A stretch of DNA of 49,995 nt, filler included, from Streblomastix strix (Eukaryota), in assembly GCA_008636045.1 (NCBI GenBank). It is 3 parts of 3 records of this genome, joined end to end, with 100 filler letters (N's around TTAATTAATTAA, not from the genome) between each part and the next. Parts side by side here need not be neighbours in the genome. Positions count along the whole stretch, not along the records: positions 16,709 to 33,303 come from SNRW01000788.1; 2 more parts are not named here. One strand, written 5' to 3'. Shown here in pieces: positions 16,709 to 41,411 of this stretch. Made by a program: the position numbers and the translations under genes. The notes under the pieces were generated by a model. That model ran no database searches. It was not told where the DNA came from and saw only the letters and a list, made by a program, of their open reading frames with translations. How positions within the stretch are numbered: position 1 is the stretch's first letter; each line of letters begins with the position of its first letter.

Positions 16709-19700
16709 TTCTTTTATTATTTCTTCTGGTTTTTAATCATCTTCTGGATCTTTTTCTGTTGGATCAAGAATATCAGGATCAGTTGGATTAATTTCTATTT
16801 ACTTACAAACTTATTCACCTCTTGGATCATCAACTTCTAGACATGGACAATTAGAAGTTGATTAATGAATTAAATCAACAATGCATAATTTATCTCTCTC
16901 ACATGTTGCTTGTGGGTATGAAGATCCCAATTCACACATACAATCAATAGTGAGTTCAACTTTTGAAATGCAATATGATGGGCAAATGTCGCCAGCTCTT
17001 GGATCACCTTTCATCAAACATGGACAGTCAGCTTTAGATTGATGTATTAAATCTATGATACATTTTTTATCTTTCTCACAAGATTCATATGGATAAGATG
17101 AAGATCCTGTATCACAAATACAATTTACATTTGTTTATCCTCTCACACAATATGTTGGACAAGCACCACCAGCTCTTGGATCTTAAGTTGTTCTGCAATC
17201 ACATATTGATTATGGAATTCCAATTAACTGTGATGAATTTGTTGGACACTTGCAACCATATGGATAATTTGATTCAATGCATGAACATGAATCTTATGGT
17301 ACTGAAGAGCCTGATTATGCAGTACATTTCTTATCTGATTAACACAACTAAGGAGGATATTATACATTTGGATTCAAATCACAAACACAAGAAGATGTTG
17401 GAATATCTGGTCCTATACAATATGCTGGGCAGGTGGTTCCTGCTCTGGGATCTGAAATATTACTACACTGACATTGAGATGTTGGAATATTAATCAATTA
17501 GGATGAATCAGTTGGACACTTGCAACCAGAAGGATAATTTGTTCCTGAACATGTGCATGAATCAGTTGGAACTGTAGAACTTGAACTTGCAGTACATTTC
17601 TTATCAGATTGACAAGTTTAAAGAGGATATTATGCATTTGGATTTGAATCACAAGCACAATTTGCATTTGGTGTATCTTTAGCTGTACAATAAGCTGGAC
17701 AGGTGTTTCCAGCTCTTGGATCACCAGTTGGCAAACATGGACAATCAGATGCAGATTAATGTACTAAATCCGTTGCACACAACATATCTTTCTGACATTA
17801 AGCCAATGGGAAAATAGTTGAATTTGTATCACAAACACAATTTATAGATACATAACCTTTCATGCAATATACAGGACAAAAACTACCATTTCTTGGATCA
17901 CCTGTTGATTAACATGGACAGTAAGATATATTCTGATGAATTATATCGTATGTGCATAATTTATCTTTCTCACAATCTGAAGAAGGATAAGATGTAGAAT
18001 TGGGATCACAAACACAATCAGATGTTAGTTCAGCTTTTGATTTACAATATGATGGACAAGTAGTACCAGCTCTTGGATCTTCTTCTGAAAGACATTAACA
18101 TTATGATATTGGTGTATCTTTAGTGATTGAGCTGCATGGATCTGAAATTATTATTGAACTAAGGTCATAATCAATTAATGGTTTTCTTCCAAGTTCTGAA
18201 TCAGCTCCAAATTCAGTTCCATAAATTGCATTAGTTTTGTTATATGAAGGTGAATTAATATTAATAAGGATACGCTATTATATATTCATTGATATGATAT
18301 TCCAACAATAAATGAATATATCTCGACCAAACAATTATGCTTTATTATCGATAAATTGAACTTAATTTCCAATAGTGAAATTATTTGTTGAATTTTGAGC
18401 CAGTGAAAGATAAATACTTCCACCTCGTCCTCCGCTGTTTGAACTCTATATTGAATTACATTCTTTGAATTTCACATTTCCATCAATTTTCAGTTAACCA
18501 GATTACACTAACCAAGCATAGATAGCTCCACCTTCTCCTCCAATACAAATACATTTATTAAATTGACAAGTACCTTATATAGTAAGTGATGAACCTGAGT
18601 TGATATATGCATAAATAGCACCTCCTTCTCTTCTGGATTAGCATAAGTCAAATATGCATGCTCCATCAATTGTTACTGATCCTTAATGGATATTTGTATA
18701 GATTAGGCCTCATTCTCCATTATACAAACACTCTGTAAAGTTGCAATTTGCGATCTATACTTTATCAGTTTCAATTTCCAAATTGATGTAAATTACTCCT
18801 CCAACGTAATCTGCAGTATTTTCTAAGCTCTTAAATACAGAATTGGTTAATGTTAATGATCCAGATTGAATGTAGATTACTGGTATAGTAAATTTTGTCA
18901 AATCATATACTTATAGATTATCAATTATTACAAAGTTAGCTTAATAGACAAATATCAATTGTTATTCCAATGATGTTTAATATATTCTTATATTTCTGAA
19001 TTAATTATTTCCTATAGCATAAAAGAGATAGTAATTAGGTAAAACAATACAATTATGAAAGTCTACTTAATTTATTGAGCTATATTCTGGTCCTGGAACG
19101 ATTAACGCTGATCCTAAAATAGTACTATCAGCATATACATTCAAATTTGTTACCGATAAATTTCCACTATAAAGATGAATAAAACCATCTTCTTAGATAA
19201 TAGCACTTTCATTAATAGATAAGTTAATTATTGTCAAGTTTAGCACTTAGCAATCCATAAAAAAATATTGATTAATAATACTACCACCACTAATTGTGAA
19301 ATTGTTGAAGAATGTGTTTCCTCCTATTAAACTAAAGAACCACATATCTCCAATTATTTAACTGCCACCAGTAATTGTCAAGTCATTGAATATATTAATA
19401 CCTCCCCAACCTAAAATGAAAGACTGTTATTCAATAATCTATCCAGATATAGTGAGATTTGCAATTGTTAAATTGCCTTCATCATGCTTAAATATTAATT
19501 TTTGTTTGATTGAACCACCAGTAACAAAGCAATTATAGATCTCAACTTTGGTCTAATCTCCTTATGAAATAATAGCTGCTTCAGCAATTCCTGTTAATTT
19601 CAAGTTAAGAGATTCAATGAAGAATGTTCCAGCATGAATAAATATATAAGAATTGCACATTAAATCTTTTCTGGTATCTTAATATGATGTTATTCCATGA

Positions 19701-19975
19701 ACAGTTCCTTCTTTTCCTATAGTTGCTTAATCATTAACTGTGAATTAGTCAATAATGCAAATTGTGAAATTATAATTTGAAGAAGGTGATGTATATTCAT
19801 AAGGATACTTCTAAGATAGTGTTTTACAGGGAGTTGAAGGATTGTCAATACAATTAGTACTATCAGCAGGATTTCCATTGTCATCTACGTAAATGTTAAC
19901 AGAAGCAGCTTGTAAGGAATTGATAGATGCAACTAATACCAGAAGAACAGTAACAAGATTCTATTAGTTACTCAT
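16709..19975 (-). CDS. Surface protein of the same beta-helix + Cys-rich GDPRAG family; 3'-truncated
   Basis: MSNQQNLVTVLLVLVASINSLQAASVNIYVDDNG... (signal peptide); EGGAIYAYI, GEGGAIYAWL and GGRGGSIYLSL; DPRAG..CPxYC..CVCD repeats at ~16800-18150. Open with TAR=Gln. Confidence 0.85.
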
Positions 19976-20099
19976 TATTGATGCTTATATCTTGGATTTA
20001 CTGGCCAAATTCTTATTAATAGAATATATATGAGTAATGTATGCTTCTAAAAATGTTCTAAAAAGAACGAGAATCAGTATAATCCAGAAATTACTAATG

Positions 20100-20863
20100 A
20101 ATTAATGAAAAGAATTCAACGGAGCTGTCTTATATTCAGTATTTGATTGATAATGGTTGCAACGAGTCGCAAAAATAACTTTGTGAAAATTTATGCTTTG
20201 ATGCTAAAGTAAATTCATCGTGTTAGGCCGAGATGAGTCATTTTCTGTTCCAGCACAAAAAACGGCGTAAGAAGATGTTTACGAAGGAAATTGATTCAAA
20301 TATATTTATGCCCTCATATATACAAGTATAAATATACAAACAAGGAACATTTATCTGTCCTTGAGCACTCTGTATTAGTCAACCAAATAAATTAGAAAGA
20401 TTGGATTAATCCATTTGAGAAAAGAAAAAGATAAGAAGTTTTGATATATATTATTGATTAAAAAGGATATGTTGATGATAAATAAAAATATAAAATAGAA
20501 AAATAATTTAGTGATTAAGAAGATAAAATCAAAATTGAATAAGAATCTGAATGGTATTTGCTATTATGTGGTGAAAGTTATGATTTTATTGATCAATAAT
20601 TGGAAAATGCAATTGGTGAAGAACTTTAATAACAGAATAACAGAACAACAACAGCTCCTTCATCACAAATGATTCCATCTTCATCAGGACATTTTTTAAC
20701 AAAAGGAATACTCTAAGTCAATTTGTATAGAGGTTATTTTTAATTTAATTTGTATTCATACATGCATATAAAAAATTTTTTTAGAATTAAAACTACATTA
20801 AAAAATACAAATTGTACTAGTTAATATGAAATTAACACTTAATACTCAAAAATGAAAAATTGA
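20100..20863 (+). pseudogene. Degenerate hypothetical gene fragment divergent from the surface-protein gene
   Basis: Open stretch ...NQKDWINPFEKRKRQEVLIYIIDQKGY...EWYLLLCGESYDFIDQ. The 5' part is frame-disrupted and is duplicated inverted at ~23840-24200. Confidence 0.35.
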
Positions 20864-20879
20864 AAAAAACTCATTGATA

Positions 20880-21719
20880 TCACCATGGCTTTGGATTGTT
20901 CCTGTCATTGTAGAAGTTCAAAATCTCTCTTTTGGCTTCTAATGCCCTATTTTTGACATCCCATTGATATCTTTTATTAATTAATTACGATTCAATTTCT
21001 TCATTTCCTCCTTCTTCTTCTATCTGTTCTTCACATAACTTGGTAAGTAATGGTTGAAGTGGGAAGGATGGAAATAAAAAGTCTAATCTTCCTTGATGAA
21101 GTTAATAGAAGTATTCATTCATGTTATACATTTCCAAATATAATTAAATTTCTTATTATTCTTTGGAGAATAAGTTATGGAAGATTAGATTTAGATTCAA
21201 GAATTGGGAAGATTTGACAGAATTGAATTAATGAAGTGTTTAATAGGGTAAGAATATTAAATATTACATTTGGTTGATATGTAAGTGCACTCAATCCATT
21301 TATTGAATCAGAAGATTTAGAATCTTTATTAGAAGAAGAAAATATCTCTCCAAACTTCTTCAGAGTTTATATTAATTATTAAATTAATGATTTTAGAGTA
21401 TCAGTATATCCTATAAGTGATGGAAGGATTATATCATTGATTACTGTGGAAGATGGATTAAAATCTGGTTTAAATGCGAGTTCAGCCAATCCTGATAGGG
21501 CAGGAATTGCATTTTGTATTTCACTGAACAAAAAAAAAAAATAAAATAAATATTAAGTGATAAGGATATATGATTGAAATACTCAATGGATTTCTAGCTG
21601 AGACCAGAAAGAAGAGTTTAAAAACGTTGAGGTGCTTTCATAGGTGGTGCATTCGGTTTTGTGAAATGCTGAGCGATTGTGATTGCAAGATTCACAAATT
21701 CTTTAACAGAAGAAGTCAT
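20880..21719 (-). CDS. Hypothetical protein of expanded 'EQIEEEGG' family (5' end uncertain)
   Basis: ...YFYQLHQGRLDFLFPSFPLQPLLTKLCEEQIEEEGGNEEIESQLINKRYQWDVKNRALEAKREILNFYNDRNNPKPW*; intron at ~21525-21582. Confidence 0.65.
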
Positions 21720-22810
21720 AAGCTGCTATATATTTTAAATAAAAAATCAATAAATGTTTAATTTAAAAAGAAATGTATAATTTAACACCTGAATAATAAA
21801 TAGAGTTCAAGTTATAAACAGATTTTTTAATTTGAAATAAAATTGAATTACTTGGATTTTTAAAGTTCTAAAATATTATAATTTAGATAGAAAATGATTA
21901 TAAAATATAATTAAATATAAATTAAATTTAAATTAAAGTATTTAAAAATGTTTATGATTCAGAATTCATGATGCAAGTTTTAATGTATAATCTCTGGTTA
22001 AATATAGGAATGTAAATCACAAATTTAATTTTAAAATTGTATAAATAGTTCAAAATTTCAAATAAATAAATAAAAAATGTTGTTCTAACAACAAAAACAT
22101 AAATTAAATTCAATTTATCTCCCAATCTCATTGTGACATATTCAATAAGCTTCATATATTGCATGTAAACAATATTTTGTATAAATTTATTATTTATATT
22201 AAATAAGTCCAAAATAACCAAGAATTCGACAAGTATTCGTTTTGAACACCTATATTTGATATAATATTGAGTGAATTTGTGATTATTAAATGACAAATTA
22301 TTATATAAACCGAATTATAACCTGTAAATTCTATTATATCCAATAGAATACCAACTAAATATTAAAATTTAAAACTTGAACGACTTCTGATTTAATATTT
22401 ATTTAATTTGGTTTTCTTACATTTTAATATTATATATTAATATTATTTCAACTATTTTGTTAACATTTATTATCATTCATACAATAGTTTATGCTCATAA
22501 CAGAATTTTCTAAATTTCTCATAATTCTAGATTATTATGCTTAATATTTCTTATTACGATTTATGTTTTATTGTTCAAGATTTGTGTTTAGATGTAATTA
22601 CGGAATATCTTATAAAATTCAATAAATATTTAATATGACATTCTATATTTCGTTTTTAGGACAAAAAACATCTTTTTTAGAAATTTGCAAATATTATTTT
22701 GAATTAATTATATTAAACTAATTATTAATTTATTACTTTTATTTACAATTTTTTATTTAACATACATTATTGAACCATAAAATCCTACAGTAATAAATAC
22801 AAACATTTAA

Positions 22811-23638
22811 ATGAGTAACAGAAAAATAAGTATTTTTTCTTTTATCTTTATTTTATTATTTATTTTGTTTCATTAATTAAATTCTCCTATTGTAATAATT
22901 ATATTGACATCAGTTCCAAATAAACAATAAAATCAAATAGAATAAAATATCTTAGATGCTACATAAATCATAATTTCATTTGCTTCTTTAGATGATCATA
23001 ATAAGAAAATAAAATAATATTAATAATAAAATTAATAAAAATCACAATCATCCATTTCTCCATCAAATATTTCTTATTCTATTGATCTCATTAAGAATTA
23101 AATCAATAATAATAAATGCAAAGAAATAATACAAATACCTGATCTACTTTGTTCACTTATTAAATTATACAGAAACGAAATTAATATACATACTAACGGG
23201 AACGAAGATAAATATTCCTTTCGTTTTAGAAATAAATGCAGAGGATGTCTTAATTCCATTCATTGTCATGGTGATATACAAATATAAACAGAATTAGCAA
23301 CTCATGGATATGTTGGAGTATTGACCATGTCTGTTAGTTAAGCTGGAGGGAGTGGAGAATAAAAAGATGATGAAAAATATATTGGATTGAATTACATCTT
23401 CGAATTCCTCAGTTAACTTCTTCATGGGAAAAATAATTAATCTATATTATCATCTAAACTCGCTCTGTTTAAAATAAGCATGGAGTAAATAGAAGAAGGA
23501 GGAGGAATTGAATCATAATTAATTAGTAAAAGTTAATATAATTATATCATGAATAGGTCAACAGAAATATAAAGAAAGATTTTGAACTTCTACATAGACG
23601 TGAGAAGTCCAAGGCAATGGTGGTATTGGTATTTTTGA
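22811..23638 (+). CDS. Hypothetical protein of expanded 'EQIEEEGG' family
   Basis: ATG 22811; intron ~22830-22912; ...CRGCLNSIHCHGD...SQAGGSGEQKDDEKYIGL...MEQIEEGGGIESQLISK...RKILNFYIDVRSPRQWWYWYF*TGA. Paralogous to the C-terminus of 20880-21719. Confidence 0.7.
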
Positions 23639-24306
23639 ATTTGACTTATTTCACGTAATATTGCCTTGAGTAACCAATAAAGTTTACTATTGAAGTACAT
23701 TAAAAGTAATATCAATTTTAACAATGAGTTTATTAAGTAATTTTTTTATAATAAAAATTCATGATTATACAAATAAAAAATTATTCTATTTTTTATTTTA
23801 TTTATCATAAATATTTCATTTATAATCAATAATATACTTTAACATTTCTTATCTCTTTCTTTTCTCAAATGGATTAATCCAATCTTTCTAATTTATTTGG
23901 TTGACTAATACATGGTGCTCAAGGACTGATAAATTTTCCTTATTTACTTATTTATACTTGTATATGTGAGTTCATAAATATACTTGAATCAATCTCCTTC
24001 ATAAACATCTTCTTACGCTGTTTTTGGAGTTGGAATAGAAAACAGTTCATCTCGGCCTAACACTATGAATTTACTTTAGCTTCAAAGCATAAAATTTAAC
24101 AAAGTTATTTTTATACCTCGTTGCAACCACTATCAATTGAATACTGAATATAGACAGCGCAATCGCATTCTACTCATTAATTTTCAAGTAATTTCTGGAT
24201 AGTACTGATAATTGCTCTTCTTCAAACATTTATAGAAGCATACATTACTCATATATATTCTGGTAATAATAATTTAACCAGTAAATCAAAGATATATTCA
24301 TCAATA

Positions 24307-26250
24307 ATGAGTAACTAATAGAATCTGGTAACTGTTCTTCTGATTTTAGTTGCTTCTATCAATTCTTTGCATGCTTAATTTGTTAATATTCATGCAAATG
24401 ATAATGTAAACTCTATTGATGGAACTAATTGTATATCTTCAGCAATTCAATCAAAAAAAATTAAAGATGAAATAATTGATAATTATAAAATTCGCCCTCA
24501 AATTACTTCTTAGAATTTCCCTCAAATCTTAGACGGAAATACTGAATGTATTTATTAAGGATAAAATCAGAAAGAGAATCGATGCTAAATTCCAATATTA
24601 AATTCATTTCATCATATTGAACAAGTTCATCATATCAATAATAAACTTATAATGGTTAATAATTTCATAGTTATTATTATTCTCCATATAATATCATTAA
24701 ATTCCATATAACAAATAATCTCACAAAATAAAATGAAAACAAAATAAATCAATAAACTTAACAAAAATTAGATTAATTACTTACTGATAATTCAAATCCT
24801 TCGAGTATATATTTCTTTTGTTGGTATATTTGAATCCTCAGCTACAACATTTTTCTTTCAAAACTAAAATTATGTAGATTAGCCAGTAAGGAACATTACA
24901 GTAAATGAATCAGGAGATGAATATATTGAATGAAATTACCAATTTAATAAATGTATTTGTACAAGTGGGAATCGTGGAGCGATCTATATAAGACTCAATT
25001 AATCTGGCCAATTGAAAATTGTTGGAAATTTACTATTCAAAGAATATAATGCAATATAAAGTTCAAACAGCGGAGGATGAGATGGAAGCATTTATCTTTC
25101 ATTAACTCAATATTCAACAAATAATTTTACTATCAGTATCACTATTTCTTTTGTCGATAACAAAGCATAATTATTTGGAAGGATATATTCATTTATTGTT
25201 GGAATATCATATCAATAAATGTATAATAGCGTATCCTTATTAATATTAATTCTCCTTCATATAACAAAACTAATGCAATTTATGGAACTGAATTTGGAGC
25301 TAAATCAGAACTTGGAAGAAAACCATTTATTGATTAAGATCTAGGTTCGATATTAATTTCTGATCCATGCTGTTCAATCACTAACGATACATCAATATCA
25401 TAATGTTAATGTCTTTCAGAAGAAGATCCAAGAGCTGGTACTGCTTGTATATCATATTGAAAATCAAAATCAGAACTAACATCTGATTGTATTTGTGATT
25501 CAAATTCTTCATCTTATCCTTCTTCAGATTGTGAGAAAGATAAATTTTGCACATTCAATTTAACTAATTAATCTAATGCAACATGTCCATGTTAATCAAC
25601 AGGTGATCCAAGAAATGGTAGTTTTTGTCTTGTATACTGCATGAAAGGTTAGATATCTATAAATTGTGTTTGTGATACAAATTCAACTATTTTCCCATTG
25701 GCTTAATATCAGAAAGATATGTTGTGTATAACGGATTTGGAACATTAATCAGCATCTGAATGTCCAAGTTTGTGTACTGGTGATCCAAGAGCTGGAAACA
25801 TCTGTCCATCATATTGTACAGCTAAACATACACCAAATGCAAATTTTGCTTGCGATTCAAATCCAAATGCATAATATTTTCCATCTTAATGTCAATCTGA
25901 TAAGAAATGTACTGCAAGTTCAAGTTCTACAGTTCCAACTGATTTATGCATATTTTCAGAAATAAATTATCCTTATGGTTGCAATTGTCCAATAGATTCA
26001 TCACAATTAAGTGGTATCCCATCTTCCAGATGTGAAAGTCGAACAATTGGAGATCCCAGAGCAAATCGGATTTGTTCAGATTAATGTACAAAAGGATAAG
26101 TTACATCTAATTGTATATATAATTCAAATTCATCAGACTTTCCTATTACTCAATGTTAAAAAGAAAAATTATGTATAGCAGGTTTAATCAATCAAACTAC
26201 AGATAATTTTCATCTAGATGAATGCTATTATAACTATGTATCACCAAGCT
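24307..26250 (+). pseudogene. Decayed inverted duplicate of the 16709-19975 surface-protein gene
   Basis: Same start MSNQQNL(V)TVLL. CGA>TGA in GGRGG (~25078) and TGT>TGA in CPSYC (~25458); frameshifts; middle replaced by unrelated sequence at ~24450-24900. Confidence 0.85.
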
Positions 26251-26754
26251 AATATTTTTATTTCTTTATTTTATTGGATTGTGCATATACGAGTACTATA
26301 TTGATAATCTGGTACAATTACTATCCCATTTTTGTTTTTTTCACCTTTTTTTTTACTAAATTCTTTTTACAGCTCCTAGAATTTGCAGTTTTCCAAGTTT
26401 TGAACATAATTTTGAAATAAAAACTTATAATTAAAATAAAAAAAAAAAAAAAAAGGAAACCCGATACTAATGATACGAATTATGAATTTGTATTTAATAA
26501 ATTTAAGCAAGAAATGGAAAAATTTCTTACCGGTAACAACTTGTGTAACTTTGAAGACATCGTTAAAATGATCGATACAATAACACAACCATCGTTATTT
26601 TTATAACTACCGTTTCAATCTCGCCATCCGAAGCACCTCATATCACGAATTTAAACCTAATATTATTATGGTTACTCTATTAATATTTTTTTTCAAAATA
26701 AAAAACATTATATTTTTTTTTTATTTAATAATCTTTATTTTATTATTGTATATT

Positions 26755-26922
26755 GCCGGTGGATCAAGCGGCGAGAGCGACTAGCGGGTCTATTGGAGTG
26801 TATTCAACTTTGCGGAGTACATTCACAATCTACGCAATGGCAAACACGAGAAGTATGATGATATATTCCAACACCGTCTCAGACCTCAACCTCACCTTCG
26901 TAAAACAACAGAAGAAACTAAA
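26755..26922 (+). pseudogene. Exon or fragment of 'EQIEEEGG' family gene
   Basis: AGGSSGESDQRVYWSVFNFAEYIHNLRNGK...PQPHLRKTTEET resembles AGGSGEQKDDEKYIGLNYIFEFLSQLLHGK of 22811-23638. Confidence 0.5.
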
Positions 26923-26974
26923 TGTAAATTAAATATTTCATTGAATTTTCTATTTTTTTGTCAAAATAAATTAT

Positions 26975-27448
26975 AATTATTTTTATATTTATTATTACAA
27001 ATTTATAAATTTAAATGTTTAAAATTGTTTCATTTCAAATTTTATAAATATTAAAATATTTTTTTTAATTTAATTTTAAAAATTTAATTTATAAAATTTT
27101 AAAATTAATTTACTTAACTTTGAAAACAATTTATTTAATTTTAATTTTTTTATAAATAATTAACATGTGTTACATTAAATTAAAAATTGTACATTTGAAA
27201 ACTTTATTTTATGTATTAATTACAGTTACAAATCTAATTATATAAGTTTTATAGCTTATTAGTTTTAAATAAATTTTTCATAATTTATAATAGTAATCAA
27301 CTTTTTACTAAAAATTACTCTAATAGATTAATACGATAGTAATAAATTATAATTATTTTTTTATATTTATTAATATTTATGTATAAATTTTAATGTTTAA
27401 AGTTGCTTTATTTTATATTTGATGAAAATTAAAATATTTTTTTTAATT
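26975..27448. repeat. Imperfect ~95-bp AT-rich direct repeat (26975-27070 and ~27352-27448)
   Basis: attatttttatatttatta...tataaattt(a/t)aatgtttaaa.ttg.tt.attt...attaaaatattttttttaattt occurs twice. Confidence 0.5.
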
Positions 27449-28299
27449 TGGGCGTTTGCAAACCAAAAAATTGCATAATGTTATTATTATACAAAATTGA
27501 TATACAATATATGTACTATACTTATATTATAATAATAGTTGCAATTTATTGTTTACCGTTTCATTTTTTTGATTTTAAAATAAAATCATAAATAATAAAA
27601 AAAATATGATAATATATTGTAAGAAAAAATTGATTAAAAATTTTGAAAGATAGAATAATTTAGTGATATTTTATATTAATAATATATATGGACTGCACCA
27701 GAGAGCACTAATTCTGCCACGCTATTTATACCATTAATCTCCGCATCAATTTACTATCATGACTAAGGCTCATTTCAGCCATGGAAATTAGACACGTAAT
27801 CTCCACGTCAAATGACTATATCTACAAAACCCTATAATCTCCGCACCAAATGACAATACTACAAAATGACGCATATTTATTTACGACATGAACTAATTTT
27901 ATCACGGTATTTATGCTCACAAATCCTATGACAAAAATCAACTCAATCCATTAATGTGATACGCAAATGATATGGATTAATATTTAAAATTTATTCAAAA
28001 ATATTCAAAATGATTTGAAAAATAAAGGTCATATTTTCAAAATTTATGAAAAAATTTAACAATTTTAACTACTAATTTCTACACTAACTAATAGACTAAT
28101 TATATCAATCACTTATATGTATAGTCTATATCACTACATACTTCACTAATATGTATAGTAATTAGCATAGTGATGTGGGGTTGTGTGTTAAGATATTATG
28201 AAATAAATTACTAAAATTTTTCAAATAAATTCAAATATGGGTATACTTTATGTATCAATAATTAAAAATATTAAAGATAAAAATAATATAATCAATTGA

Positions 28300-28662
28300 T
28301 CAAGAATCTGATTATGAAGCATTTATGCTATCAGCTTTCTTCGAAAAGCCAGCTTCGCTGACTGATTTGGAATCAGAATTTTCATTAATACTTTCACTCT
28401 AATCACTTAAATGATTTGCTGCCTATGGCAATAATTCAATTTACTTACAACGTCGTATTACATACTCTTTTACATGAAACACCTTTAATTAATCATGTTT
28501 ATAATAAAATTTATATAGCGGTATTGTCATATATTTATTCAATGTGAATGCTCTTGCTGTAGATAACAATTCCTTATTTTATTTTACGAATTAGCGCATT
28601 TCATTAACTGTTTTGATTGATGGTATTTATAATAATAATAATGACTTTAATTCCTATGTCAT
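28300..28662 (-). CDS. 120-aa conserved element protein
   Basis: MTQELKS...IKTVNEMRQFVKQNKELLSTARAFTLNKYMTIPLYKF...*TGA; aligns by eye with 37320-37670. Confidence 0.7.
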
Positions 28663-28754
28663 TTTATTAAAAATTAAAAAATCAAACTACTCCAAAATCT
28701 AACACAAAATAAACGAGTTTTTTTCCAACATACAAAATGTCGGACAAATACAGA

Positions 28755-31700
28755 ATGAGTAAATAATAGATTTAAAACCTACTAGACTAATTATAAGTTC
28801 AATATTTACCTAATTATAAATCAGTTGAATTAAGAAATATGTTAACTAATGAATTGCATCGTTTGAATTACTAAGGTCACATAACTGTTACAACTGAAAT
28901 TGTAGCTTTTGTAAATCAAATTGTTGCTATAAGAAATGAATAATAATAGTAATAATTAGAATAAGTTGAACAATAACAATAACCCTAATTATAATAATTA
29001 ATAGAAACAGTTGATGAATAGTATTAATAGTTGAATAATGATTAACATTAATCACAATTAGTCAAAAATATTGATGAGATCATAAATGAATTGGATTAAT
29101 CTGATAATACTGATGATGATCTATTCAATCCTGATAAATACAGAGCTAATTACAAATAAAAATTTGATTAAAGTGGTAGAAGATAGCGTATGCAATAATT
29201 GATACAAGCATAGCAATAAATCACCAATTAAATAAATTAGTTATAACGGTCATTATAAACAATTAATAGTATTTTAAGTGAAGAATTTGATTTAGATACC
29301 AACTCTGTTGACGGCATAAATGCTAATGAACAGATATAACCAACTGATATTAACGAAAATTATAAACTGTTGTTAGTTGAACAATAATTGAAACACTAAT
29401 AAAAATTAGATTAATAAGAATAGTTACATCAAAAAGAGATACAAGAATTAAAGGATAGATTAGAGAAATAGAATAAAGCAGCTGTTCTAATCCAAAAGCA
29501 TTATCGAAGGCATTTAGCAGAGCAACTAATGAAATAATCAATTAATTCTGCTAAGGTAATTTAAGGCAAATGGCGAAGACATAAGCTATACGAATAATTA
29601 GAATAGCTAATCATCAATTAAAGATATAAGAGATAGGGTGAAAAGCCATTTAGATTACTCAGTTATTTAGAAGCAAAATTAGGCGCTAAAGAGTTCGCAA
29701 AAAGAGTCAAAAAACTTAATGAAGAATATTATGGATTACATTAGAATCATTTTAGTGAACCGAGTATAACGAAAACATAGTAATTAAATAAAGATAGGGA
29801 ACTTGAATAGAAAGCATTCGTTATCTTCACACCATAGAATTTATAGGCTTATTATGTTGCATTAGATTAGGCATGATAGAAATTCTAGGATAAGAATGAA
29901 GTTAGTATAGAAGGATTATCTGATGGGCTAATGAAGTCGAAAGATATACTCAATAAAGAACCATATATTTAATACTATTACAATCATTTCTATGACTTAT
30001 AGCAACTGAAAATAAAATCTACTAGGTATATGAATTAGAGAAAGCTAAGCCTTATAAAGCATACATTAGTTTTGGATCTATCTGGTAGAAAAAGAAATAG
30101 GTATACAAGCATTAACAAACATTAGATGAATATCATTACACTCACACTACACCTAATGCTGGTGATAGTTACAAAACTCTATCTAACACAGTAGTTCGAG
30201 ATAAACAAACTAATGACTATTTCAAACAGAAGGCTGTCGATCTACTATCCGATTATTAAGATCCAATTCATGAAGATTCATCGACATTAATGACTGCACT
30301 ATATTCATTTTTGATTGTTGTTTACCGATTACCGTTAGGTACTAAAATGGATAAAATATGTTAGCACTTTAATAAAGAAGGTGTCACTAGGGATATTGAT
30401 TGTGAATATAATATATATTGGTTTATAGTAGCATCATTTGCATTGCACCCTGATATCGATAATAATAAGAGTAGGGTTAGTGATGCAATTAAATTGTTTC
30501 TCTAATACCATGACGTTAACTCAAGCTAGAGATTAAATAAAGCTAATAAATAATTACTCGAACAATATAAAGGTTTCAATTATGTAACTGATCTCGAAAA
30601 ATATCAATAAATATTCAAGCTAAACGTAATAACATATATGTGTGATGAGGTGAAACAAAAAACAAATCGTAGTGATGTCGAATAATTTAATAAATTTGAA
30701 GAACATATTATTGACAAGGACTATCAAACTGTTAATGTATTATTAGTTTCGTTGTCATTAGTCGATGAAATTCATGCAATGTATATTAGTGATATTGATA
30801 AGGTAATTAATGGAAAGCTCTGTCCTCTTAACTGTTAGACGATATTCAATACTAAGAACTAAAATTATAAGCGAGATCTTGCGAGACATTTGAAGTTCTG
30901 TTAGGGTCCATAGACAGCTAAATAAGTTAAATTAGATCATTTACCAAAGCCATATTATCCACATATATCAAATAATAAGTTACTCTAAAAATTAGTAGCA
31001 ACGGGCTAATCAGATTTGTTAATGCCAACACTCAATTACATTACATTTGATTTTGAGACAGTAAAGAACATAATTAATGAAGGTAATATAATAGCTTAAT
31101 TAGAACCATTATCTGTAGCGTCAGCAGCAACAATAAATGACTAAATTACAACGTAATATTTTGATTTACGAAATGGAACTGACTTTATTGAATAATGGAT
31201 AAGTTAATTGTTTGAAGTTGCTATTAAAGTCAATGAAGCTAATTAATCAAACATACCCGATATAACAATTGAAGATAAAAACTAGCATTAGCACGGAGTT
31301 TATCCATACAAGCCTCAAGTATCTGTTATTAGATTCAATTCTAAGAAATTTGATATAAATTTATTACTCAAACATCTACTTAAAAATAAGACTAAAATTT
31401 AATATTTAGGAACAACAACCTAGGCCAAACAAACAATTGTATCACATTAAGATTATGATTTTGACTTGAGATTTATTGATATACTATCATTCATTCCACC
31501 AAACAATACATTAAAGTAGTTCGTTGAGAAATTTGGAACCAAAGGTATAAAATTAACAAAGAGTATATTTCCACATGGATCATTCAATTATGATAACTAT
31601 AAATTAGTGTTAGGACTAACAATTCCATTCACTAAGGATGATTTCTATGACAAGCTTAATAATAAGAATATTAGTGATGAAGATTATGAATAATATGTTT

Positions 31701-33190
31701 ATGATTTCACTTCATTTCAAGACAGATGGGAGTATCTAAAGCACTATAATATCAGGGATGTTACTTGTATGATTAATCCAATCAATCATCTTATTCAAAT
31801 AACATGGGAGGAGAAATCAATATGTTAGGGTGTATATCATTAGCTCAAATTGCTAGTTAAATTAAATACAAGTACTGTTATGACAAGTTCGATATCAATG
31901 CAAGTTATAATATAGTTAATGGATTCGAATAATTCGAAGTCACTTAATACTGGTGGAATAACAAAGTTAAGGGATATATTAACCAAGATGAGTTTGCTAA
32001 GAGGGATACAACTAATAATGTAATTGAAGATGATATTGATTGGATTAGGGATAAAGTAGCTACTGAAACATGCCATCTATGTCACAATAAATTCACTAAA
32101 GAAAACAAACCCACATTAGATAGAATTGATAATTCAATTGGTCACACAAAATCGAACTGCCAACTTGCTTGTTAAATATGTAATACCGTTAAGGCTGATA
32201 AAGATAATGATATTAGTAAATTAAAGATATAATTAATGAAATATGCAATCCATGAACATCTACCTATGACTATTAACAACGAATCTGTATATAATATGTT
32301 AAAGAAATGTATGTAGGGTGGTTTGTCTAATGTGTTTCATTAATGTAATTTGAAAGGTGTCACACACATCAACAAACTTAGATATAATCATGTTACTAAA
32401 ACAATAACATCATATGATACTCCTCATATAATTACTCACATCCTTGACTTAGATTTCAACTCTCTCTATCCAAGTGTATTTAGTGGTATCTTCAACAAAA
32501 ATAACCCTTATACGAATAATCGAATATATCAAGCTGGAGGAGTAACTAGTTATTTCAAATGTACATCTAATAGTTCAAAATAGAAAGCTCGCGATGTAAT
32601 TATGAGTGATGATAGATATACTGACATTGGATAGCTATTCTGTGTTAAAATTAAAGGTCATATTGATGAAAAACATATTAACTCATATATCAAATTAGCA
32701 CCTATATGGAGGAAATTAACATACAATAATTCAATTGAATAGATAGGAGAATTTATGTACAATAAGATGAAATCATAGGGATTAACTGTTGATAAACCTA
32801 CTACAAAACTAACTTCATTGCTATCGACACACAATCAATTTATGTGCTTCACTAATTACATATTATGGTTTTTGATTGATTATTGTAATTTTATTATTGA
32901 TGACATTGATTCAATTGCTCTATTCGATAAACACCTAGGTTTTGAATCATTTGCCTGTACAATGATGGCTAAGAGATAGGATGCAATTAGCCAGCACAAT
33001 GACACGAAATCACTATACTACAAATAGATACTAAATAGTGCTTTTGGAGGAGAAGGATAAAATAATGCTAAATTTGATAAGATATCATTTAACAATGCTC
33101 GATAGACATCACTCAAATAATTGAAATTGGATCATAAGATAACAAGGAAATTAACTGATACTACATACAATTCTGATGGTGAAGTTATTG
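28755..33190 (+). pseudogene. polB: Protein-primed family B DNA polymerase (pPolB), disrupted and truncated
   Basis: ExoI YITFDFET (31037-31060), ExoII xFNSKKFD, ExoIII YLKHYNIRDV, motif A LDFNSLYPS (~32450-32475), motif B YKQILNSAFG (~33020-33048). In-frame TGA at 29874-29876; frameshifts near 30010 and 31818; motif C absent. Confidence 0.92.
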
Positions 33191-33303
33191 TATGTTAATT
33201 TCCTCCATATAGGTGCTAAATTGATATATGAGTTAATATATTTTTCATCAATATGACCTTTAATTTTAACACAGAATAGCTATCCAATGTCAGTATATCT
33301 ATC
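33185..33303 (-). repeat. Fold-back inverted copy of 32611-32729
   Basis: 119 bp reverse complement with 2 mismatches, at the contig end. Confidence 0.9.
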
Positions 33304-33403
33304 NNNNNNNNNNNNNNNNNNNNNNNNNNNNNNNNNNNNNNNNNNNNTTAATTAATTAANNNNNNNNNNNNNNNNNNNNNNNNNNNNNNNNNNNNNNNNN
33401 NNN
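33304..33403. other. Artificial contig linker
   Basis: N44 + TTAATTAATTAA + N44. Confidence 0.97.
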
Positions 33404-35031
33404 CTCTGCCTTAATATCTGGCATCGTAATAAATGAATATGCTAGAAAGAAACATAAATTTTAATTATTTTTCTCAGGGTCAATATATCGAATCTCTCGC
33501 CTAATAATATGCTTCTTTAATGATGGTATTGTTCGAACACCACCAGCGCCTGCATGTTAAAGCCTAAACACCTGAATCATTATTGAAAATATTCCTACTA
33601 TTTTCTCTTTGGTGTCCATGATGGTTTTCTCTTACATTTGAATTATGTGGTTTCTAATGTATCTTTTATAATCCTCCAAATCTAAGTGGGTGCGTATGGT
33701 TGTCAGTGCTTTCATCTATGTTCTGGCTTCAAGAGGATGATTAATTTTATACGTTATTTATTAATCGTTTTCTTAGCCATCAACTCGTTCAATAATCACT
33801 CCAAAATCAAATGCAATTTTGAATGCAAATTTCTATTCTCGCTAATATATTTCATCTAAATAAACATCAACATCTTCAATCGTTTTCAAATCATTTTTGT
33901 AATATTCTTTTGTAGGGCTGATGGTATGAACATAGAATAGGTCATATTTTACGTGTTAATTTTATAAATGTTTTCGCTCAAATTAAATTATTCTTTCATA
34001 TTCTTATTCGAGTTGTGGCTCGCATAACATTATCGTGCTCTATAGGACGTTAAGAGCATCAATTGGCCTAAAAATCTTGCCCTCATTTTCATTATTGAAT
34101 TATTTTATTTCATCTTTAACATTTTTAAACACATCTTCATTCTATTTTTATTTAAGATTTATTTTTTATTCATTGATTTCTTTCAATAAATTTGCATGTT
34201 TGACTCGTTAATCTTCCATAACTTGCTCCCATTATTAATTGTGCTGTTGGCTCTATTCGTCTTAAGCGTTCATTTGCTATTTGTTATTCTATTCTTGCAT
34301 AAATTTTTTAGCGTAAGCATCACCGATAATTTATTCGTTTTGAAGGCTTTATTGAATATCTTATCTGAATCGTCTTGCAAATGGTTCGGATTATAATATT
34401 GTATTTCTAACTATATCTCTATTGTTTCTACCGTGATTTAAACCGATTTTATCTAAAATTTATGAAAATTATGACCTCAATTCATTAACATTTATTTTCT
34501 ATTATATTTCAGGGTCATGTAAAACAATAATTCTCTTATAATATTTTGAGTTAATTTTTTAGGCCTTAAATCCAATTGATAATCCTCCTTGAGTCTAACG
34601 ACTTCGTGAGCTTCACCTTGTTCGGGTTTCAGTTCATGTGATAATTCAGGAGACAGTTAATAATTCCGTGCTTGCATTTACGTAATATAATTCTGCATTT
34701 ATATCAATTATTATTGTCGTTGTTCCATTTATAATTCAGGCGATAGTTAATAATTACGTGCTTACATTTACGTAATATAATCCTACATCAAAACCTATTA
34801 TTATTATTCTGTTTATTATTATGGCACTGGCTAATAATCGCGTACTTGCGCCCATCTTATATAGTCTCACATTTAAGTCATATATTATTATGTTTATCTG
34901 GGAGATTGATGCAGTGGTAAATTTAATGGTAATAGCTCTGGTAATTCTTGAGTCATTAACGGAGGCACAATTGGAGGCACAATTGGAGGCGTGCGTCGTC
35001 TTTATGAGTCTTACCCCTATTTACCTGCCAT
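33404..35031 (-). pseudogene. N-terminal part of pPolB (Gln-rich extension, terminal-protein-like region, start of vOTU-like domain)
   Basis: ...YLDEIYQREQKFAFKIAFDFGVIIE...IVGIFSIMIQVFRL...NQNLCFFLAYSFITMPD is colinear with the contig-2 pPolB (KPYKAYISFGSIW...LYSFLIVVYRL...YNIYWFIVASFALHPD). Contains frameshifts and TGAs; truncated by contig start. Confidence 0.75.
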
Positions 35032-35067
35032 TTATTAAAATTAAAAATAAAAAATATTTACATAAAT

Positions 35068-35260
35068 ATAATGATTAATAAATTGGACTGGGTTGATTGG
35101 ACCGAGTCAAAACATCAATGTATTTTATGAAATTGGCACAAAGAAATGGAATCGTTAATGAATGACTTTTGACTGGACCGTGTGGATTGGGTGGATTGAG
35201 TCAAAAACTTTTATAAAAAGCTGTGGCCAACTGGACAACTGGCCAATAATTGAGAAAAAT
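35068..35260 (+). repeat. Intergenic palindromic element, copy 1 (long form)
   Basis: TGAATGACTTTTGACTGGACCGTGTGGATTGGGTGGATTGAGTCAAAAACTTTTATAAAAAGCTGTGGCCAACTGGACAACTGGCCAATAATTGAGAAAAA. Confidence 0.95.
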
Positions 35261-35283
35261 AAATAAAAATAAAACCTATTAAA

Positions 35284-36364
35284 TCATTTGAATTTATATT
35301 TAGCTAAATCAAAACCACCTATTTATTCATGTCTCTATGTTAGAATTTGACCATAATATTACATGGCTTAACCAAGTGTTTCCTTAATTCTAGCATCGAC
35401 ATCTTTGGCTTAATATAATTGAGTAATAACGGTAGGCAATTCTTTATTATATAATCTTTTAGCAAATGGCAAAAATTCGTATTATCGTTACTAAATTTTA
35501 GTTTTATTGCTTCTGTTATATATGTCTATTTTTCCATCTTATCTTTCTAATATTTCTACCGCAGGACTAATAAGAACTGAATTCCAAGCAGATGCCATTA
35601 TTTGTTGTTTGATTGCCATTGGCAATTATGCGCCTCCATTTTGGTTTATGATTTTTTTGGCGTTGACGGTGAATGCTCTGAAACTAAAATTCTTTATCTC
35701 CCTTACCTTATGCGGCTTAGTCATTAACAGCCATTTCATGTAAGGGCCGCCTTTTATTCCAGATGCTTTTAATTTGGCTGCCAATGCTGCTCGTTCTAAA
35801 TCATTAACATCTGAATAATATTTTTTCTTCCAATTTCTTTTATGTTAATGCTCTAAGTCGCCAAATCCTACAGCTGTTGTATAACCATCGACTGAATAAA
35901 TCGCGTTCTTTTTCTTATCAAATACAACCACATTATCAGGAGTGGCTACATTATCATCTAAATCTTATTCCAATACACTAAATCGTTTGTCTAAATGCTT
36001 ATCTTATATATATTTTTTGGGCACTGACGGCAGACGATAAGCTATTAATTTTCTTCATATCTCTGTTCAAATAACCGACAAGTGTAGCAAGAACATCACC
36101 CGCCTCTTCTCTGAATTATGGGCCTCCATGCTTTCTTGTTGTTTGAATCATACTGGGATGGAACGGCAGCCTACCAAACGGTTTTGCTCGTGATTTCATT
36201 CTGTCCTATCTTGAAGCTTGTGATTCATAATAATCGTAATCATCCTCCATTCCGTCAATGTCCATCATCCCACCTGCACCACTAACACCTAAGCCTTAGC
36301 CTTTTTCCGTTTCAAATTCTTATCTTGCTTCCTTTTCAATTTATTTTAAATCGAATTCTGACAT
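35284..36364 (-). pseudogene. ~360-aa viral hypothetical protein (one +1 frameshift)
   Basis: MSEFDLKQIEKEARQEF...EQDLDDNVATPDNVVVFD...IYSVDGY...KYKFK*TGA; span 1081 = 360x3+1, with the shift near 36015. Confidence 0.7.
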
Positions 36365-36403
36365 TCTATTTCTTATCGAAAAAAAAAGTTTTAAATAATA
36401 AAA

Positions 36404-37193
36404 ATGGCGAGTTTAACATAAAAAAGTTGATAATATGTTAAAAAAAAATAAAAGTGAATAAGCACGAAATTTAAACTTTTATTCATAAAGAGTTAAATTT
36501 TACATATAACTCTGTAAATTTATTGATTGATTAGCGCGGCAGTGGCAAGACGTATAATGTCTTCAAAGAGTTAATAAAATTAAGTTAATTAAAAAAACAT
36601 TGTTATACACTATTCATATATGTCAGCGACTCAAATAATGACACCACTTATAAAAAGATGAAGGATTTAATTAAAATACCGATTAAAATTATTCCATATG
36701 CCGAAACGGATCAAGTGCTGAATGATTTGATAGAATGTAAATAAGCGTATGATGGAATATAAGAAAAATAATTATAAAAAGAACTAACTGAACAATCAAA
36801 AGATGATATATTAACCAATGTATTTGGTGCTAGTGGAGAAGGTAATTTTGACGTCAAATTTCCCCATATGATTGTTTTATTTGACGATGCAATGAGTATA
36901 TTTAAAAATAAAAATAATCCATTATTTAAGAAGTTATTTAAGAACTGATAACCCAGAATAACATACTTCCTTTGTTTATAGGACATCATTGGTTTGGATG
37001 CTGCGATTAAATCAAATCTTGATTCATTGTGGTTCTTCGGTTCATTTAACAGATTAAAATTTAATTAATTTTTTTATTAATCTTCAATACCATCAGATAA
37101 AGAAACAATATGGTATGAATATGTTCGACTAACTAAATAATAAGCATTAGTGGTATAATATAAAATGAGTGGAACAGTTGTTAAAATAATTTG
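36404..37193 (+). pseudogene. A32-like (FtsK/HerA) genome-packaging ATPase
   Basis: Walker A LLI[D]QRGSGKT (36529-36552, first Gly mutated), Walker B HMIVLFDDA, Arg-finger region KN[TGA 36946]QPRITYFLCLQD; frameshifts near both ends. Confidence 0.88.
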
Positions 37194-37216
37194 AAAACAT
37201 TTGAAAAAAGCAAATA

Positions 37217-37324
37217 TTTATTTTTCTCAATTATTGGCCAGTTGTCCAGTTGGCCACAGCTTTTTATAAAAGTTTCTGACTCAATCCACCCAATCCACAC
37301 GGTCCAGTCAAAAAGTCATTCATT
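37217..37324 (-). repeat. Intergenic palindromic element, copy 2
   Basis: Reverse complement of the copy-1 core; starts at the TGA stop of 37320-37670. Confidence 0.95.
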
Positions 37325-37670
37325 TCAGCGCTTAAACCAAATGGTTCAGAACATCCAAAAACTAGTCTAATTTATACTCAATCCTATTCAATTAATCTTT
37401 TGCACAAGTTCTTATACATACTTGACCTTCTATTTTTGATAACTAATAGCCGTCCAATTTATATAATTTATTTAATTTTTACGTTGATAGTTTAGATAAT
37501 TATTATTAATTTTGGGAAATAAATTATTTGAAATCGTTTAAAGTCTCAAAATATTTATGTCCGTCAGTCTAACCTTCGACCCCCTCCTCGTTATCTTATT
37601 CATCATATTCTATTTATAATTTTAAAGTAAATTAATTGTTTTTTCTATTGTCAAATAATATTCTTTCCAT
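37320..37670 (-). CDS. 116-aa conserved element protein
   Basis: Intact ORF: ...YFETLNDFKQFISQNQQQLSKLSTQKLNKLYKLDGYQLSKIEGQVCIR...ALK*TGA. Confidence 0.75.
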
Positions 37671-37704
37671 TTTATTTCTGCAAAAATAAAATAAATAATG
37701 CCGT

Positions 37705-38591
37705 TCATTTGTGTTCAAGTTATATATTCATATATTCCTTAATTTTATTTATGACTTCATCAGTTAAATCTTCATTAAATATATATTTAGTTCCTTTAAA
37801 TTAAATACCTTCCATATTTTTATTTAAATATTCTTTGATGGCTTCATTTTTGGTCATTGCAATACATTCCTAATCATAGTATAAAAATGCATCTTTTAAT
37901 TTCTACATCAATTTTCGACTAATACATTTCTTATTTCTTCTTCGAACCTTTAAAATTGTATTATTTTTATCATCAACTTCTATATATTGAACGGCTAAAA
38001 CATAAGCTGTTTCTATGCCTTATGGAACAGCTCTTGGTTTCAATTGTTATATTTCAATATCTTTTTAATTTATTATTATTTTTAATTCATTTTTTTTAGC
38101 TTTTATTTCTTCATAATTTCGATCAAATGTTATACTTTTGCATGATGCAATAGAAGTTGAATCGTCTAACTAATATTCTAAATGTATTCTTTCATCTAGT
38201 AAATCCATTATTTCATTTACATATTCTAAATATTTAACTGACGTTTTCATGCAGATAATATTCAGAAATTTCTTATGTGCATATGCTCCTCTTATTTCAT
38301 TTGATAAAGATAATGGAAGTTAGTAAATCAGGGGTGGCTCAAATTGAGCCGACCTCCTAATTCGAGACAAGATTTATAGTCTTAAAACATTGGAGAACGA
38401 ATTATGTTTTTTAATTATTTATTTGTTTTTTCTTACTAATTTATTTATTAAACAAATTTTGTTGCATTAATATAATCGTCTTTATCTCGGATTATTATAT
38501 TGAATCCATTATTTGAGCCAACAGTAAAATTTTCATTGTTTGTTGCAATTGATTATATTGTTCTGTTGTTTTGTTCGTTTGTTGATTCCAT
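37705..38591 (-). pseudogene. KilA-N domain protein (frameshifted)
   Basis: NGFNIIIRDKDDYINATKFVQQ...NEIRGAYAHKKFLNIICMKTSVKYL, then coiled coil and LKPRAVP; frameshift near 38340-38370. Confidence 0.8.
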
Positions 38592-38647
38592 CTTATATAC
38601 AGATAAAAAGTTAAATTTGTATAAAAATAAAACGATTTATTTTAAAA

Positions 38648-38956
38648 TCATTTAATTTATTTTATTTTTTCATCTGCTTCTTAAATTTTTAATTCTAATT
38701 TCTTTATATTTTTTTTACAAACTGTTTCAGATTCAATATTTCTTAAATTGGCCTCTTTTTAAATTAATTTCATCATTTCTATCATTTTTTATTTTGCATT
38801 AATTAATCTTTCTTATTCATATTCATAATCAATAATTTTAAACTCTAAGTCTTCTCCATCTCTTTCAGCTTGCACTAATAAAAATTTCATAGTATCTACC
38901 ATAAAAATTCGTGCATATTTTTCAAAACTTAAATTCTATTTCTCATTATTTGCCAT
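38648..38956 (-). CDS. 102-aa coiled-coil hypothetical protein
   Basis: Intact ATG..TGA ORF under table 6: MANNEKQNLSFEKYARIFMVD... Confidence 0.6.
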
Positions 38957-39004
38957 CTCTATAGTGATAAAAACATGAAATTAAATAATAATAAATAATT
39001 TATT

Positions 39005-39397
39005 TCAATATTCCAGCATCAACTCCAGAACAAATTTTAATTATTAATTTATTTTCATTAATTCTTAATTTTAGCGGAACCATACATATAAATATCTGTT
39101 GTGGTTATATAGAATGAAAGGCTTATAAACTCGTTATTCATTACAATAGTCAACAAATTAATCGAAATATTATTCTTCCTAAACCATTGAACTATGAACA
39201 GAAATGTCTTCGTTAGCGCCTTAGTTTGAACAATGACATTAGCAGAATATTATTTTTCTTTAATTATCTGAATTTACAAACGCGTATGGTAATGCAAAAC
39301 CAACTCCATTTTATCCGTTTTCTCCGATAACAACTCCATCATTTTATATTAAAGTGTAATATTTTAAGTTTTATGCTGAAGTCATATTTGAAACCAT
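39005..39397 (-). CDS. 130-aa beta-rich protein, candidate minor capsid/structural protein
   Basis: Intact ORF: ...GFALPYAFVNSDNQRKIIFCQC...DISVHSSMVQ...YLYVWFR...KFVLELMLEY*; lies directly downstream of the capsid-like gene. Function is inferred. Confidence 0.55.
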
Positions 39398-39514
39398 TTA
39401 TTACGAAATAAATAAAAAATAATTAATATAACTAATGACCTATTTAATTAACTGTATTAATGTTCAGGTGTTAGTTATATATGCAAATAAAAAAATAAAA
39501 AATGTTCAATTATT

Positions 39515-41235
39515 TCAGGCACTTAATGGTCCAATAACTTCATCAAATGAATGGTTTGTATCATATATGCAGCTACCACCTGCAGCGCGTGAAAACAACC
39601 AAAATGTATCATGAACTGTGCATAAAATAGGATGCGGTGGTATCTTTCCGCTGGAATCAACATTATAATATGAATCTGTAGCTCCTTGATATATTGGTGC
39701 TCCTCTGAGTTCGACAGATGTGTTTTAGTTTTGTGTGTCTAATCTGTCAAAAGTTAGTGCTCCGTTGCTGTTCCTTTCACATTATAGAGTTATCAAAAAG
39801 CTTGTTAAATCTGTATGAGGGTTCAGTCTTCGGGTTGCAGTATTTCTTAGCATTGTCAAAGCATCTTCGAATTCATCAATGGCTTCGAATAAAAGGTCAA
39901 GATTTGACGCATTGAGTTATAATTGGAAGAGTTATTGGTCTAGCGTATTCATGGGCATATCTGGGAAATTACGTCCGCAGGTGGTTACTTGCATGTTCTG
40001 ATAGCAAGGATTTTCAAAGCAAATCGTAGCTCTTGCATCTTTAAGGAACAGAAGGCAGAAGTCGGTTACGTGAGACAGAGGAATATTATAAGATGTTCGT
40101 ATTCATGTTAAAGTAGCAGACGTTGGAAATGGCCATACTTCCACACGTTGAGCGGGAACAACAAATGGACGTTAGCTGTATAATTTTCGGACTCGATTAA
40201 GGCATGCATCAGTAGCTTTATAACCTGCCATGTTAGCGGTTACCTCTGTTATGACATAATTTTTTATGCTTATGGTGACCGGTTTGATGTCGCATATTAA
40301 GTTTTTCAATCCTGACTCAGTTAGTGGTTCCGCATGTAGTCCTGTAATCAAGTCAGAAGTGCATCCCAATTACGTAAATTATTTAGTATATTGGAATGTC
40401 AGACTCCAATTTCTGAACATCAAATCAATATCCATTTTCTTCTATTGACTGCTACCCAATAACTCATCTTTATTCATTGTATAATATTTAGCCATTGAAA
40501 TTATTGGATTCACTTGACAGAAAACGAATGCATGAGGATTAATTTTGAATTTTATTTTTAAATCACCAAATTGGCCATTAGGGTAGTCAGTGAATGCAGA
40601 GAATATCAAGAGGTCATCAAGTGGAATGCTGACTTTGAAACGTATTGGAATTGTATATGGAATGGATGTTTGATTTCCTATTAGCTCTTCAATCTCTCGC
40701 ATATTTATATTTGTTCCACACGCTAACGTATCAAAATTATGAATGTTCTCGTATAAAGAATGTATATGTTTTCTATTATTTTTCTCACTTTTTGGCTTGA
40801 TTGTATTATAAATGAATGATTCAGTTGTTGCGTCATTCTATAAGTTTCCATCAATAGTTTTACCTCTATGATAGATGGTATATTCGAGAATAAGATTTGA
40901 GCCTGATTTGAGACCTACGAATAGAACCAATCCGTCTTTATATGATTCGTCAATTTTATCAAATTTATCATCGAGTTAAATATTGGCAGTTAGCACTACC
41001 GACAAGAATGAATTTTATATCTATGTGATGTCGTGGTCTGTGTCTGATAAACTAATGATTATCTCCTTATCAAATAAGCTGGCATTTATGATTCTGGTTT
41101 GATTTCCTTGATTGAATAACGATGTTCTCCGTCATTAGTGAATGGAACGATAGCATTACCTAACAATGTTTCTTCAATTGTTCCTGCTTGTTGTAAATGT
41201 GTGGCTTTCATTAAGAATCTGTTTATCTTTTACAT
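39515..41235 (-). pseudogene. Probable major capsid protein (~570 aa, double jelly-roll inferred)
   Basis: Long beta-rich ORF: LFVGLKSGSNLILEY...FKVSIPLDDLLIFSAFTDYPNGQFGDLKIKFKINP...FVVPAQRVE...CFENPCYQNMQV...ITLQCERNS. Size and context next to ATPase and fibre genes fit an MCP. Frameshift near 41075 and TGA at 40103-40105. Confidence 0.7.
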
Positions 41236-41303
41236 TCAATAAAAAATTGAAATAGTTAAATATAAACGTAATGAAATAAAAATCATTTATTAAATATTTA
41301 TGA

Positions 41304-41387: not shown

Positions 41388-41411
41388 TTAAATCGTTAAT
41401 GTTTATGTTTT

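Follow-up and report, generated by a model that had tools for sequence, protein, structure and literature searches.

Tandem IQ motifs in the N-terminal stalk of polinton-like viral DNA polymerase precursors from Streblomastix strix, and their predicted binding of calmodulin

The DNA analysed here (hereafter the window) is a stretch of 49,995 nucleotides from the protist Streblomastix strix, which lives in termite guts, and is read with genetic code table 6. It is made of three unrelated pieces of ~16.6 kb (1-16608, 16709-33303 and 33404-49995), joined by N linkers of the form N44-TTAATTAATTAA-N44 at 16609-16708 and 33304-33403; since these positions are joining linkers, open reading frames (ORFs) that cross them are artefacts. 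A host RhoGEF gene lies at 8305-9492 on the plus strand (PF00621, E 3.5e-27), and several copies of a Cys-rich repeat protein built of CxCxxxxDPRAG units, which probably belong to a family of host surface proteins, are found at 14071-18565 and 24940-26103. The third piece has an ORF at 36118-36948 on the plus strand containing GSGKT (Walker A-like) and VLFDD (Walker B-like), likely a packaging ATPase, for which Pfam and PHROGs provide no name, as well as ~120-base tandem repeats encoding DQIDAY-type units at 44564-46386, possibly a fibre protein (matching a PHROG of unknown function, E 1.6e-7). It also contains an intergenic repeat of 90-200 bases, 80-98% identical and present in both orientations (35068-35274, 37215-37324, 41301-41395, 41787-41987 and 47499-47647), which may serve as a common promoter or terminator, and ends in a 1-kb inverted repeat (47761-48795 and 48963-49995) that is 91% identical.

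On the second piece the GC content jumps from ~0.15 to 0.38 at 27700 (27690-28731 region), and this change likely marks the left edge of an element. The region includes an unnamed ORF of 143 aa on the minus strand (28300-28731), which is divergent from the polymerase. Beyond it, the locus has the replication gene of a polinton-like virus in a decayed copy, part of an integrated, virus-like element, and encodes a protein-primed DNA polymerase (pPolB) with a long N-terminal extension. An ORF at 33293-34300 was considered as a neighbour of this gene and rejected, as it sits on the other joined piece. The features of the locus are:

28737..29876, plus strand: N-terminal extension ORF of the pPolB precursor, from the likely ATG to a copy-specific TGA (table 6; X1-X4 contigs)
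28761..28930, plus strand: small three-helix N-terminal domain (model and alignments), also present in subfamily 2 and in P0095/P0176
28931..29477, plus strand: Gln-rich helical or coiled-coil stalk; in the P0001 model, helix 51-140 extends across both IQ units
29478..29546, plus strand: IQ unit 1 (IQ1), 23 aa, Ile at 29490 (Pfam PF00612); IQKHYRRHLA in 5 of 5 proteins that reach the unit
29547..29615, plus strand: IQ unit 2 (IQ2), 23 aa, Ile at 29559; 34 copies compared
29874..29876, plus strand: nonsense lesion of the window copy, or an assembly error (contig depth; homologous proteins)
29958..30331, plus strand: terminal-protein (D1) domain, broken by a frameshift at ~30008-30017 (model fold match; frame change)
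30370..30800, plus strand: vOTU protease domain, bounds approximate; Cys lost at 30416, His at 30773
30821..31816, plus strand: zinc-finger-like segment plus exonuclease domain, with motifs at 31043, 31334 and 31745; second frameshift at ~31813
32071..32184, plus strand: endonuclease VII / HNH insertion in the polymerase (phrog_1035, E 6e-8 on P0034; Cys motifs)
32452..33303, plus strand: polymerase palm, motif A at 32452 and motif B at 33022, cut before motif C

In other S. strix copies the chain runs from a helical N-domain through a coiled coil and the IQ pair into the terminal protein, the vOTU protease, the exonuclease and the polymerase with its endonuclease VII insert. Residues 250-375 of the AlphaFold2 model of P0001 superimpose on the Y-family little-finger domains of Pol iota, Dpo4 and Pol eta (Z 5.5-5.9, 86-99 residues aligned), a middling Z, but the predicted little-finger-like terminal-protein fold fits the published one. 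Residues 387-533 match OTUD1 (Z 8.6, rmsd 5.0, 121 aligned), and the vOTU Cys and His follow the terminal protein in P0002 and P0038; the motif [NK]ICWF occurs in 17 of the 34 subfamily proteins, the other 17 being without a match to the pattern. The best matches of the P0001 model in BFVD are an adintovirus (E 1e-14) and a MELD-virus protein (E 3e-11). Foldseek against the PDB returned nothing at E 0.001. The predicted exonuclease motifs of the window were recognised by motif patterns. All exonuclease motifs and the polymerase motifs A, B and C are present in P0002, and A, B and C also in P0034, while the window has no motif C because its piece ends at 33303. The last 124 bases of that piece (33180-33303) repeat 32611-32733 in inverted orientation (97.6%), which is probably an artefact of amplification or of the assembly. 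Pfam DNA_pol_B_2 matches none of these proteins, only the distant relative P0136. Most of the 34 subfamily proteins with the IQ2 block are fragments, and among them the terminal-protein pattern is seen in 28, the exonuclease pattern in 23 and motif C in 5.

With one stop, two frameshifts and no protease Cys, the window copy is dead. The earlier note recorded a TGA at 29874 and a frameshift near 30010, and both are present; to these must be added three features that it overlooked, namely a second frameshift near 31813, a vOTU Cys lost at 30416 and a piece that stops at 33303, short of polymerase motif C. The stop and the frameshifts are peculiar to this copy. At 29874 all the depth in the covering contigs from runs X1-X4 (10, 2, 5 and 1 contigs; X1 and X2 are one sample, maybe the source of the window, X3 and X4 come from other studies) has a sense codon, as have the homologues, so the TGA is not the conserved true stop that would have made the IQ-bearing ORF a separate gene. 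Read evidence on the first frameshift is partial, the insertion being seen in 9, 4, 1 and 0 contigs, respectively, plus loose ends. Other S. strix copies possess a continuous chain from the IQ motifs to the polymerase, such as P0034 with 1653 aa, which aligns with the window in three successive frames (1-374, 372-969 and 969-1427) that are gapless at the breaks; P0002 (1448 aa) aligns in the same way. Both IQ units lie upstream of the terminal protein in P0001, P0013, P0033, P0034 and P0038, and these fused homologues bear out the proposal that the motifs belong to the pPolB/terminal-protein precursor. The carriers are eukaryotic gene models, able to splice over lesions as P0010 does, and those named are all from one organism and probably one assembly. 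Because P0010 is apparently the public model of the window locus itself (same residues), it is not independent evidence.

The contigs from X1-X4 match the window from 28734-28735, with loose ends and unrelated sequence before that point. Among the 40 of 206 differences listed, none creates a stop codon, and 13 of the 34 codons affected are silent. Given that the copies match only from 28734-28735 and that the listed differences create no stop, the ATG at 28737 is the likely start, which would place ~400 residues ahead of the terminal protein. A model of low confidence (mean pLDDT 60) gives the N-domain at the head of this extension helices at 9-23, 29-42 and from residue 49 on, and the domain finds no match in Pfam; it may tentatively be likened to HeH/LEM/SAP-like folds, for which Pfam likewise returned nothing.

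The earlier note had read two IQxxxRR motifs in AAVLIQKHYRRHLAEQLMKQSINSAKVIQGKWRRHKLYEQ, from 29478 on under table 6, with starts 23 codons apart at 29490 and 29559, and both the motifs and their distance are confirmed. Scanned under table 6 with the Pfam IQ model, the whole ORF scores 25.1 bits against the PF00612 cut-off of 20.3; the single passing stretch is IQ1, and IQ2 alone, as in P0002, has no Pfam match at E 0.05. Among the homologues P0034 (21.9 bits), P0038 (21.8), P0013 (20.9) and P0033 (23.2; IQ pair at residues 184-243) pass, and P0001 remains under the cut-off with 18.4 bits. The fragment P0013 already bears an IQ protein label in UniRef. When the 379-aa ORF was shuffled 100,000 times, with patterns picked post hoc after the sequence was known, two IQxxxRR motifs appeared in 4 shuffles and never at a spacing of 22-26, and a loose IQ pattern at that spacing appeared in 0.5%. 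In the P0001 model both units sit inside one 90-residue helix (51-140) continuous with the coiled coil, with pLDDT dropping from ~90 to 60 across them. The motifs retain I1, Q2, a hydrophobic residue at 5 and R/K at 6 on a helix. Across 34 copies of IQ2, I1 is kept in 34, Q2 in 32, W5 in 31, R/K6 in 32 and L14 in 34, and free positions vary, with five different residues at position 3 and an even division of position 6 between R (16) and K (16). The motifs are hence conserved in related copies, the absence of which the earlier note had named as grounds for giving up its reading; as the copies are 77-90% identical overall, this conservation is weak evidence of selection.

The complete (myosin-type) IQ consensus has Gly7 and Arg11, and neither residue is found in any of the 34 copies of IQ2 or the 5 of IQ1, so that the motifs are of an incomplete type. 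The S/GxxxR element is also given in PMC13693507. Accordingly, of the likeness to myosin necks that had been suggested, the 23-residue spacing stands and the motif type does not, the nearest matches being ASPM-like arrays, Nav1.4 and rdgC. The closest cellular match that we found is P0121, an ASH-domain protein with an ASPM-like IQ array, which is identical to the S. strix pair at 18 of 40 positions without gaps; two other IQ arrays reach 10-12 of 40. The 23-residue spacing recurs in 9 of 18 cases in P0121 and is the commonest in cellular IQ arrays, being shared also with the IQ arrays P0162 and P0190. The ASPM-like arrays differ from the S. strix pair in having many repeats, often with G7 and R11. 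As a lead from sequence comparison, the pair may have been captured from an ASPM-like gene. A sequence search of the PDB yielded the IQ peptides of Nav1.4 (6MUE, 6MBA, 6MC9) and rdgC (8ZLW), which share the IQxxYRRH core and the lack of Gly7 but are single motifs in cellular proteins, at non-significant E-values (0.16-0.74) and with an unrelated enzyme as the top row.

When 1.84 billion representatives were searched with P0001, 182 matches came up, the best 150 of which were examined. Two of the matches listed, P0161 and P0122, mark out a second subfamily in S. strix, whose extension is ~20-24% identical to that of the first. In 16 of 20 subfamily-2 proteins a segment AATVIQxxVRKWF, a single IQ-like unit variable at positions 3, 4 and 11, directly follows the N-domain; of the remaining four, one is changed at Q2 and three are without the segment. 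In a MAFFT alignment this unit is a 23-residue insert absent from subfamily 1 at that place, while the subfamily-1 pair is largely unmatched; the edges of the insert are uncertain because the region is Gln-rich. The unit stays under the Pfam IQ cut-off (best 12.2 bits, in P0199), and a profile built from it alone has, among 200 sequences, its top 45 matches all in IQ units, at modest E-values. Trees of the TP-vOTU region part the two subfamilies, and a single clade is rejected (AU p 0.014, on a quick LG+G4 tree of 34 rows hand-picked from 88, with the group named after an earlier tree). Among the matches listed, nine distinct relatives have no IQ motif in the 120-254 residues before the terminal protein, and none is seen in a related copy in the window at 33404-34558 (minus strand), which covers the N-domain, the terminal protein and the start of vOTU at the N-terminal end of a further pPolB-like gene and is 33% identical to subfamily 2. 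As these nine relatives with a long N-terminus and the copy at 33404-34558 do without it, the family can dispense with the motif. The tree would be compatible both with two gains and with a single gain followed by relocation and losses.

The sequences themselves show the fusion, the order of the domains, the conserved motifs and the lesions. To the reading as a whole, in which intact relatives carry an IQ stalk fused to the polymerase at its terminal-protein end and the motifs likely hold host calmodulin or another EF-hand protein akin to it, we give a probability of roughly 0.55. By analogy with known IQ motifs, it is fairly probable that each unit would be held by one lobe of calmodulin or of another EF-hand protein. 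Other readings of the same block have to be weighed against it. The block could be a basic amphipathic helix, IQ-like or IQ-derived and without calmodulin binding, that acts as a nuclear localisation signal or a DNA-binding arm: each unit has a net charge of +3 with RYKR next after it, G7 and R11 are missing, and terminal proteins carrying localisation signals exist. Yet two subfamilies only ~22% identical both retain I1, Q2 and the lead-in AAxxIQ, and a localisation signal needs neither these nor the exact spacing seen in cellular arrays, and we regard this reading as unlikely. We think it distinctly unlikely that the block is a functionless passenger, part of an ASPM-like IQ array of the host that was captured in a fast-changing spacer. 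The resemblance to P0121 and the patchy occurrence over the family would fit such a capture, whereas two placements in two lineages and anchor positions that are kept while free ones vary speak against it, as does the proportion of silent codons, 5 of 9 in the IQ block versus 8 of 25 upstream (among the 40 of 206 differences listed).

The gene models themselves raise a further reading, in which the polymerase begins at the internal Met at 29529 and carries IQ2 only, the stalk and IQ1 being a separate product or untranslated. This Met is position 14 of IQ1 and is invariant in alignment A2, and 29 of the 34 public proteins with the IQ2 block are without IQ1, since the models open at this Met or close to it. 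Against this, the frame from 28737 to 29529 is free of stops, the contigs match from far upstream and add no stop among the differences listed above, P0033 and P0034 are continuous from the N-domain into the terminal protein, subfamily 2 begins at an equivalent N-terminus, and the Met has a second role within IQ1. An internal start is therefore improbable, and most public gene models of the family probably begin too late and hide IQ1.

If host calmodulin or a related protein does bind the stalk, each motif, lacking Gly7 and Arg11, would be expected to grip apo-calmodulin mainly by its C-lobe, like the Nav1.4 IQ, for which 6MBA is described as a C-lobe, extended calmodulin mode in PMC13693507; the same paper shows that similar IQ motifs differ greatly in affinity and that a canonical-looking IQ can bind apo-calmodulin weakly. 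Two tandem calmodulin-bound units would stiffen one long helix. Cleavage by vOTU between the terminal protein and vOTU has been proposed for polintons (PMC11161782), and were it to occur here, the terminal protein at the 5' ends of the genome would keep the stalk. Calmodulin would then be a light chain and a calcium-sensitive handle for moving or holding genome ends, most likely to bring them to the nucleus or shift them inside it, and not to regulate catalysis. That the stalk is such a handle for transport or tethering is a tentative suggestion drawn by analogy. A literature search did not confirm calmodulin in oxymonad hosts. A full 149-aa calmodulin gene occurs on an IMG/VR giant-virus contig (L002, 601-1050).

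The polinton or Maverick pPolB (PMC11161782) has the same TP-vOTU-Exo-Palm order, a little-finger-like terminal protein and an OTU fold, and the S. strix form differs from it in ~400 more residues before the terminal protein, made up of the helical domain, the stalk and the IQ motifs; in the parts of that paper available, two N-terminal domains are given and the word calmodulin is absent. Table-6 endogenous viruses are known from S. strix, and the Metamonada-group endogenous viral elements described in the available sections of PMC10120064 share this host and code. That group is defined by capsid proteins, whereas here we have the polymerase alone, the piece ending at 33303. All 28 homologues found for the IQ-bearing ORF carry the name Streblomastix strix. 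JGI metagenomes and IMG/VR were scanned for related loci and gave none, a protein scan that may miss table-6 genes. IQ motifs are already known in viral myosins, with IQ tails in 15 of 24 giant-virus myosins (PMC8215601, in part); these too belong to DNA viruses of protists but sit on a motor protein. Similarly, the IQ-motif gene of CpV-BQ1 (PMC12085832, in part) comes from a DNA virus of a protist but encodes a protein of unknown kind, neither a replication nor a terminal protein. An IQ motif on a pPolB or terminal protein was not found in the main texts of the literature searched, largely papers free of subscription, and the word calmodulin is absent from the main texts of PMC12721341, PMC13215967 and two 2026 preprints. 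From sequence comparison, an IQ-bearing form of the polinton pPolB thus appears to be new and is so far confined to one host.

More speculatively, and with the odds against it, oxymonad polinton-like viruses may have twice taken host calmodulin as an accessory subunit of the terminal protein, through 23-residue IQ units at differing sites of the stalk, making genome transport or precursor processing calcium-sensitive. If true, this would be a direct link from host calcium signalling to a polinton replication protein, and would bear on how protein-primed viral genomes arrive in the nucleus and on what wakes integrated polintons.
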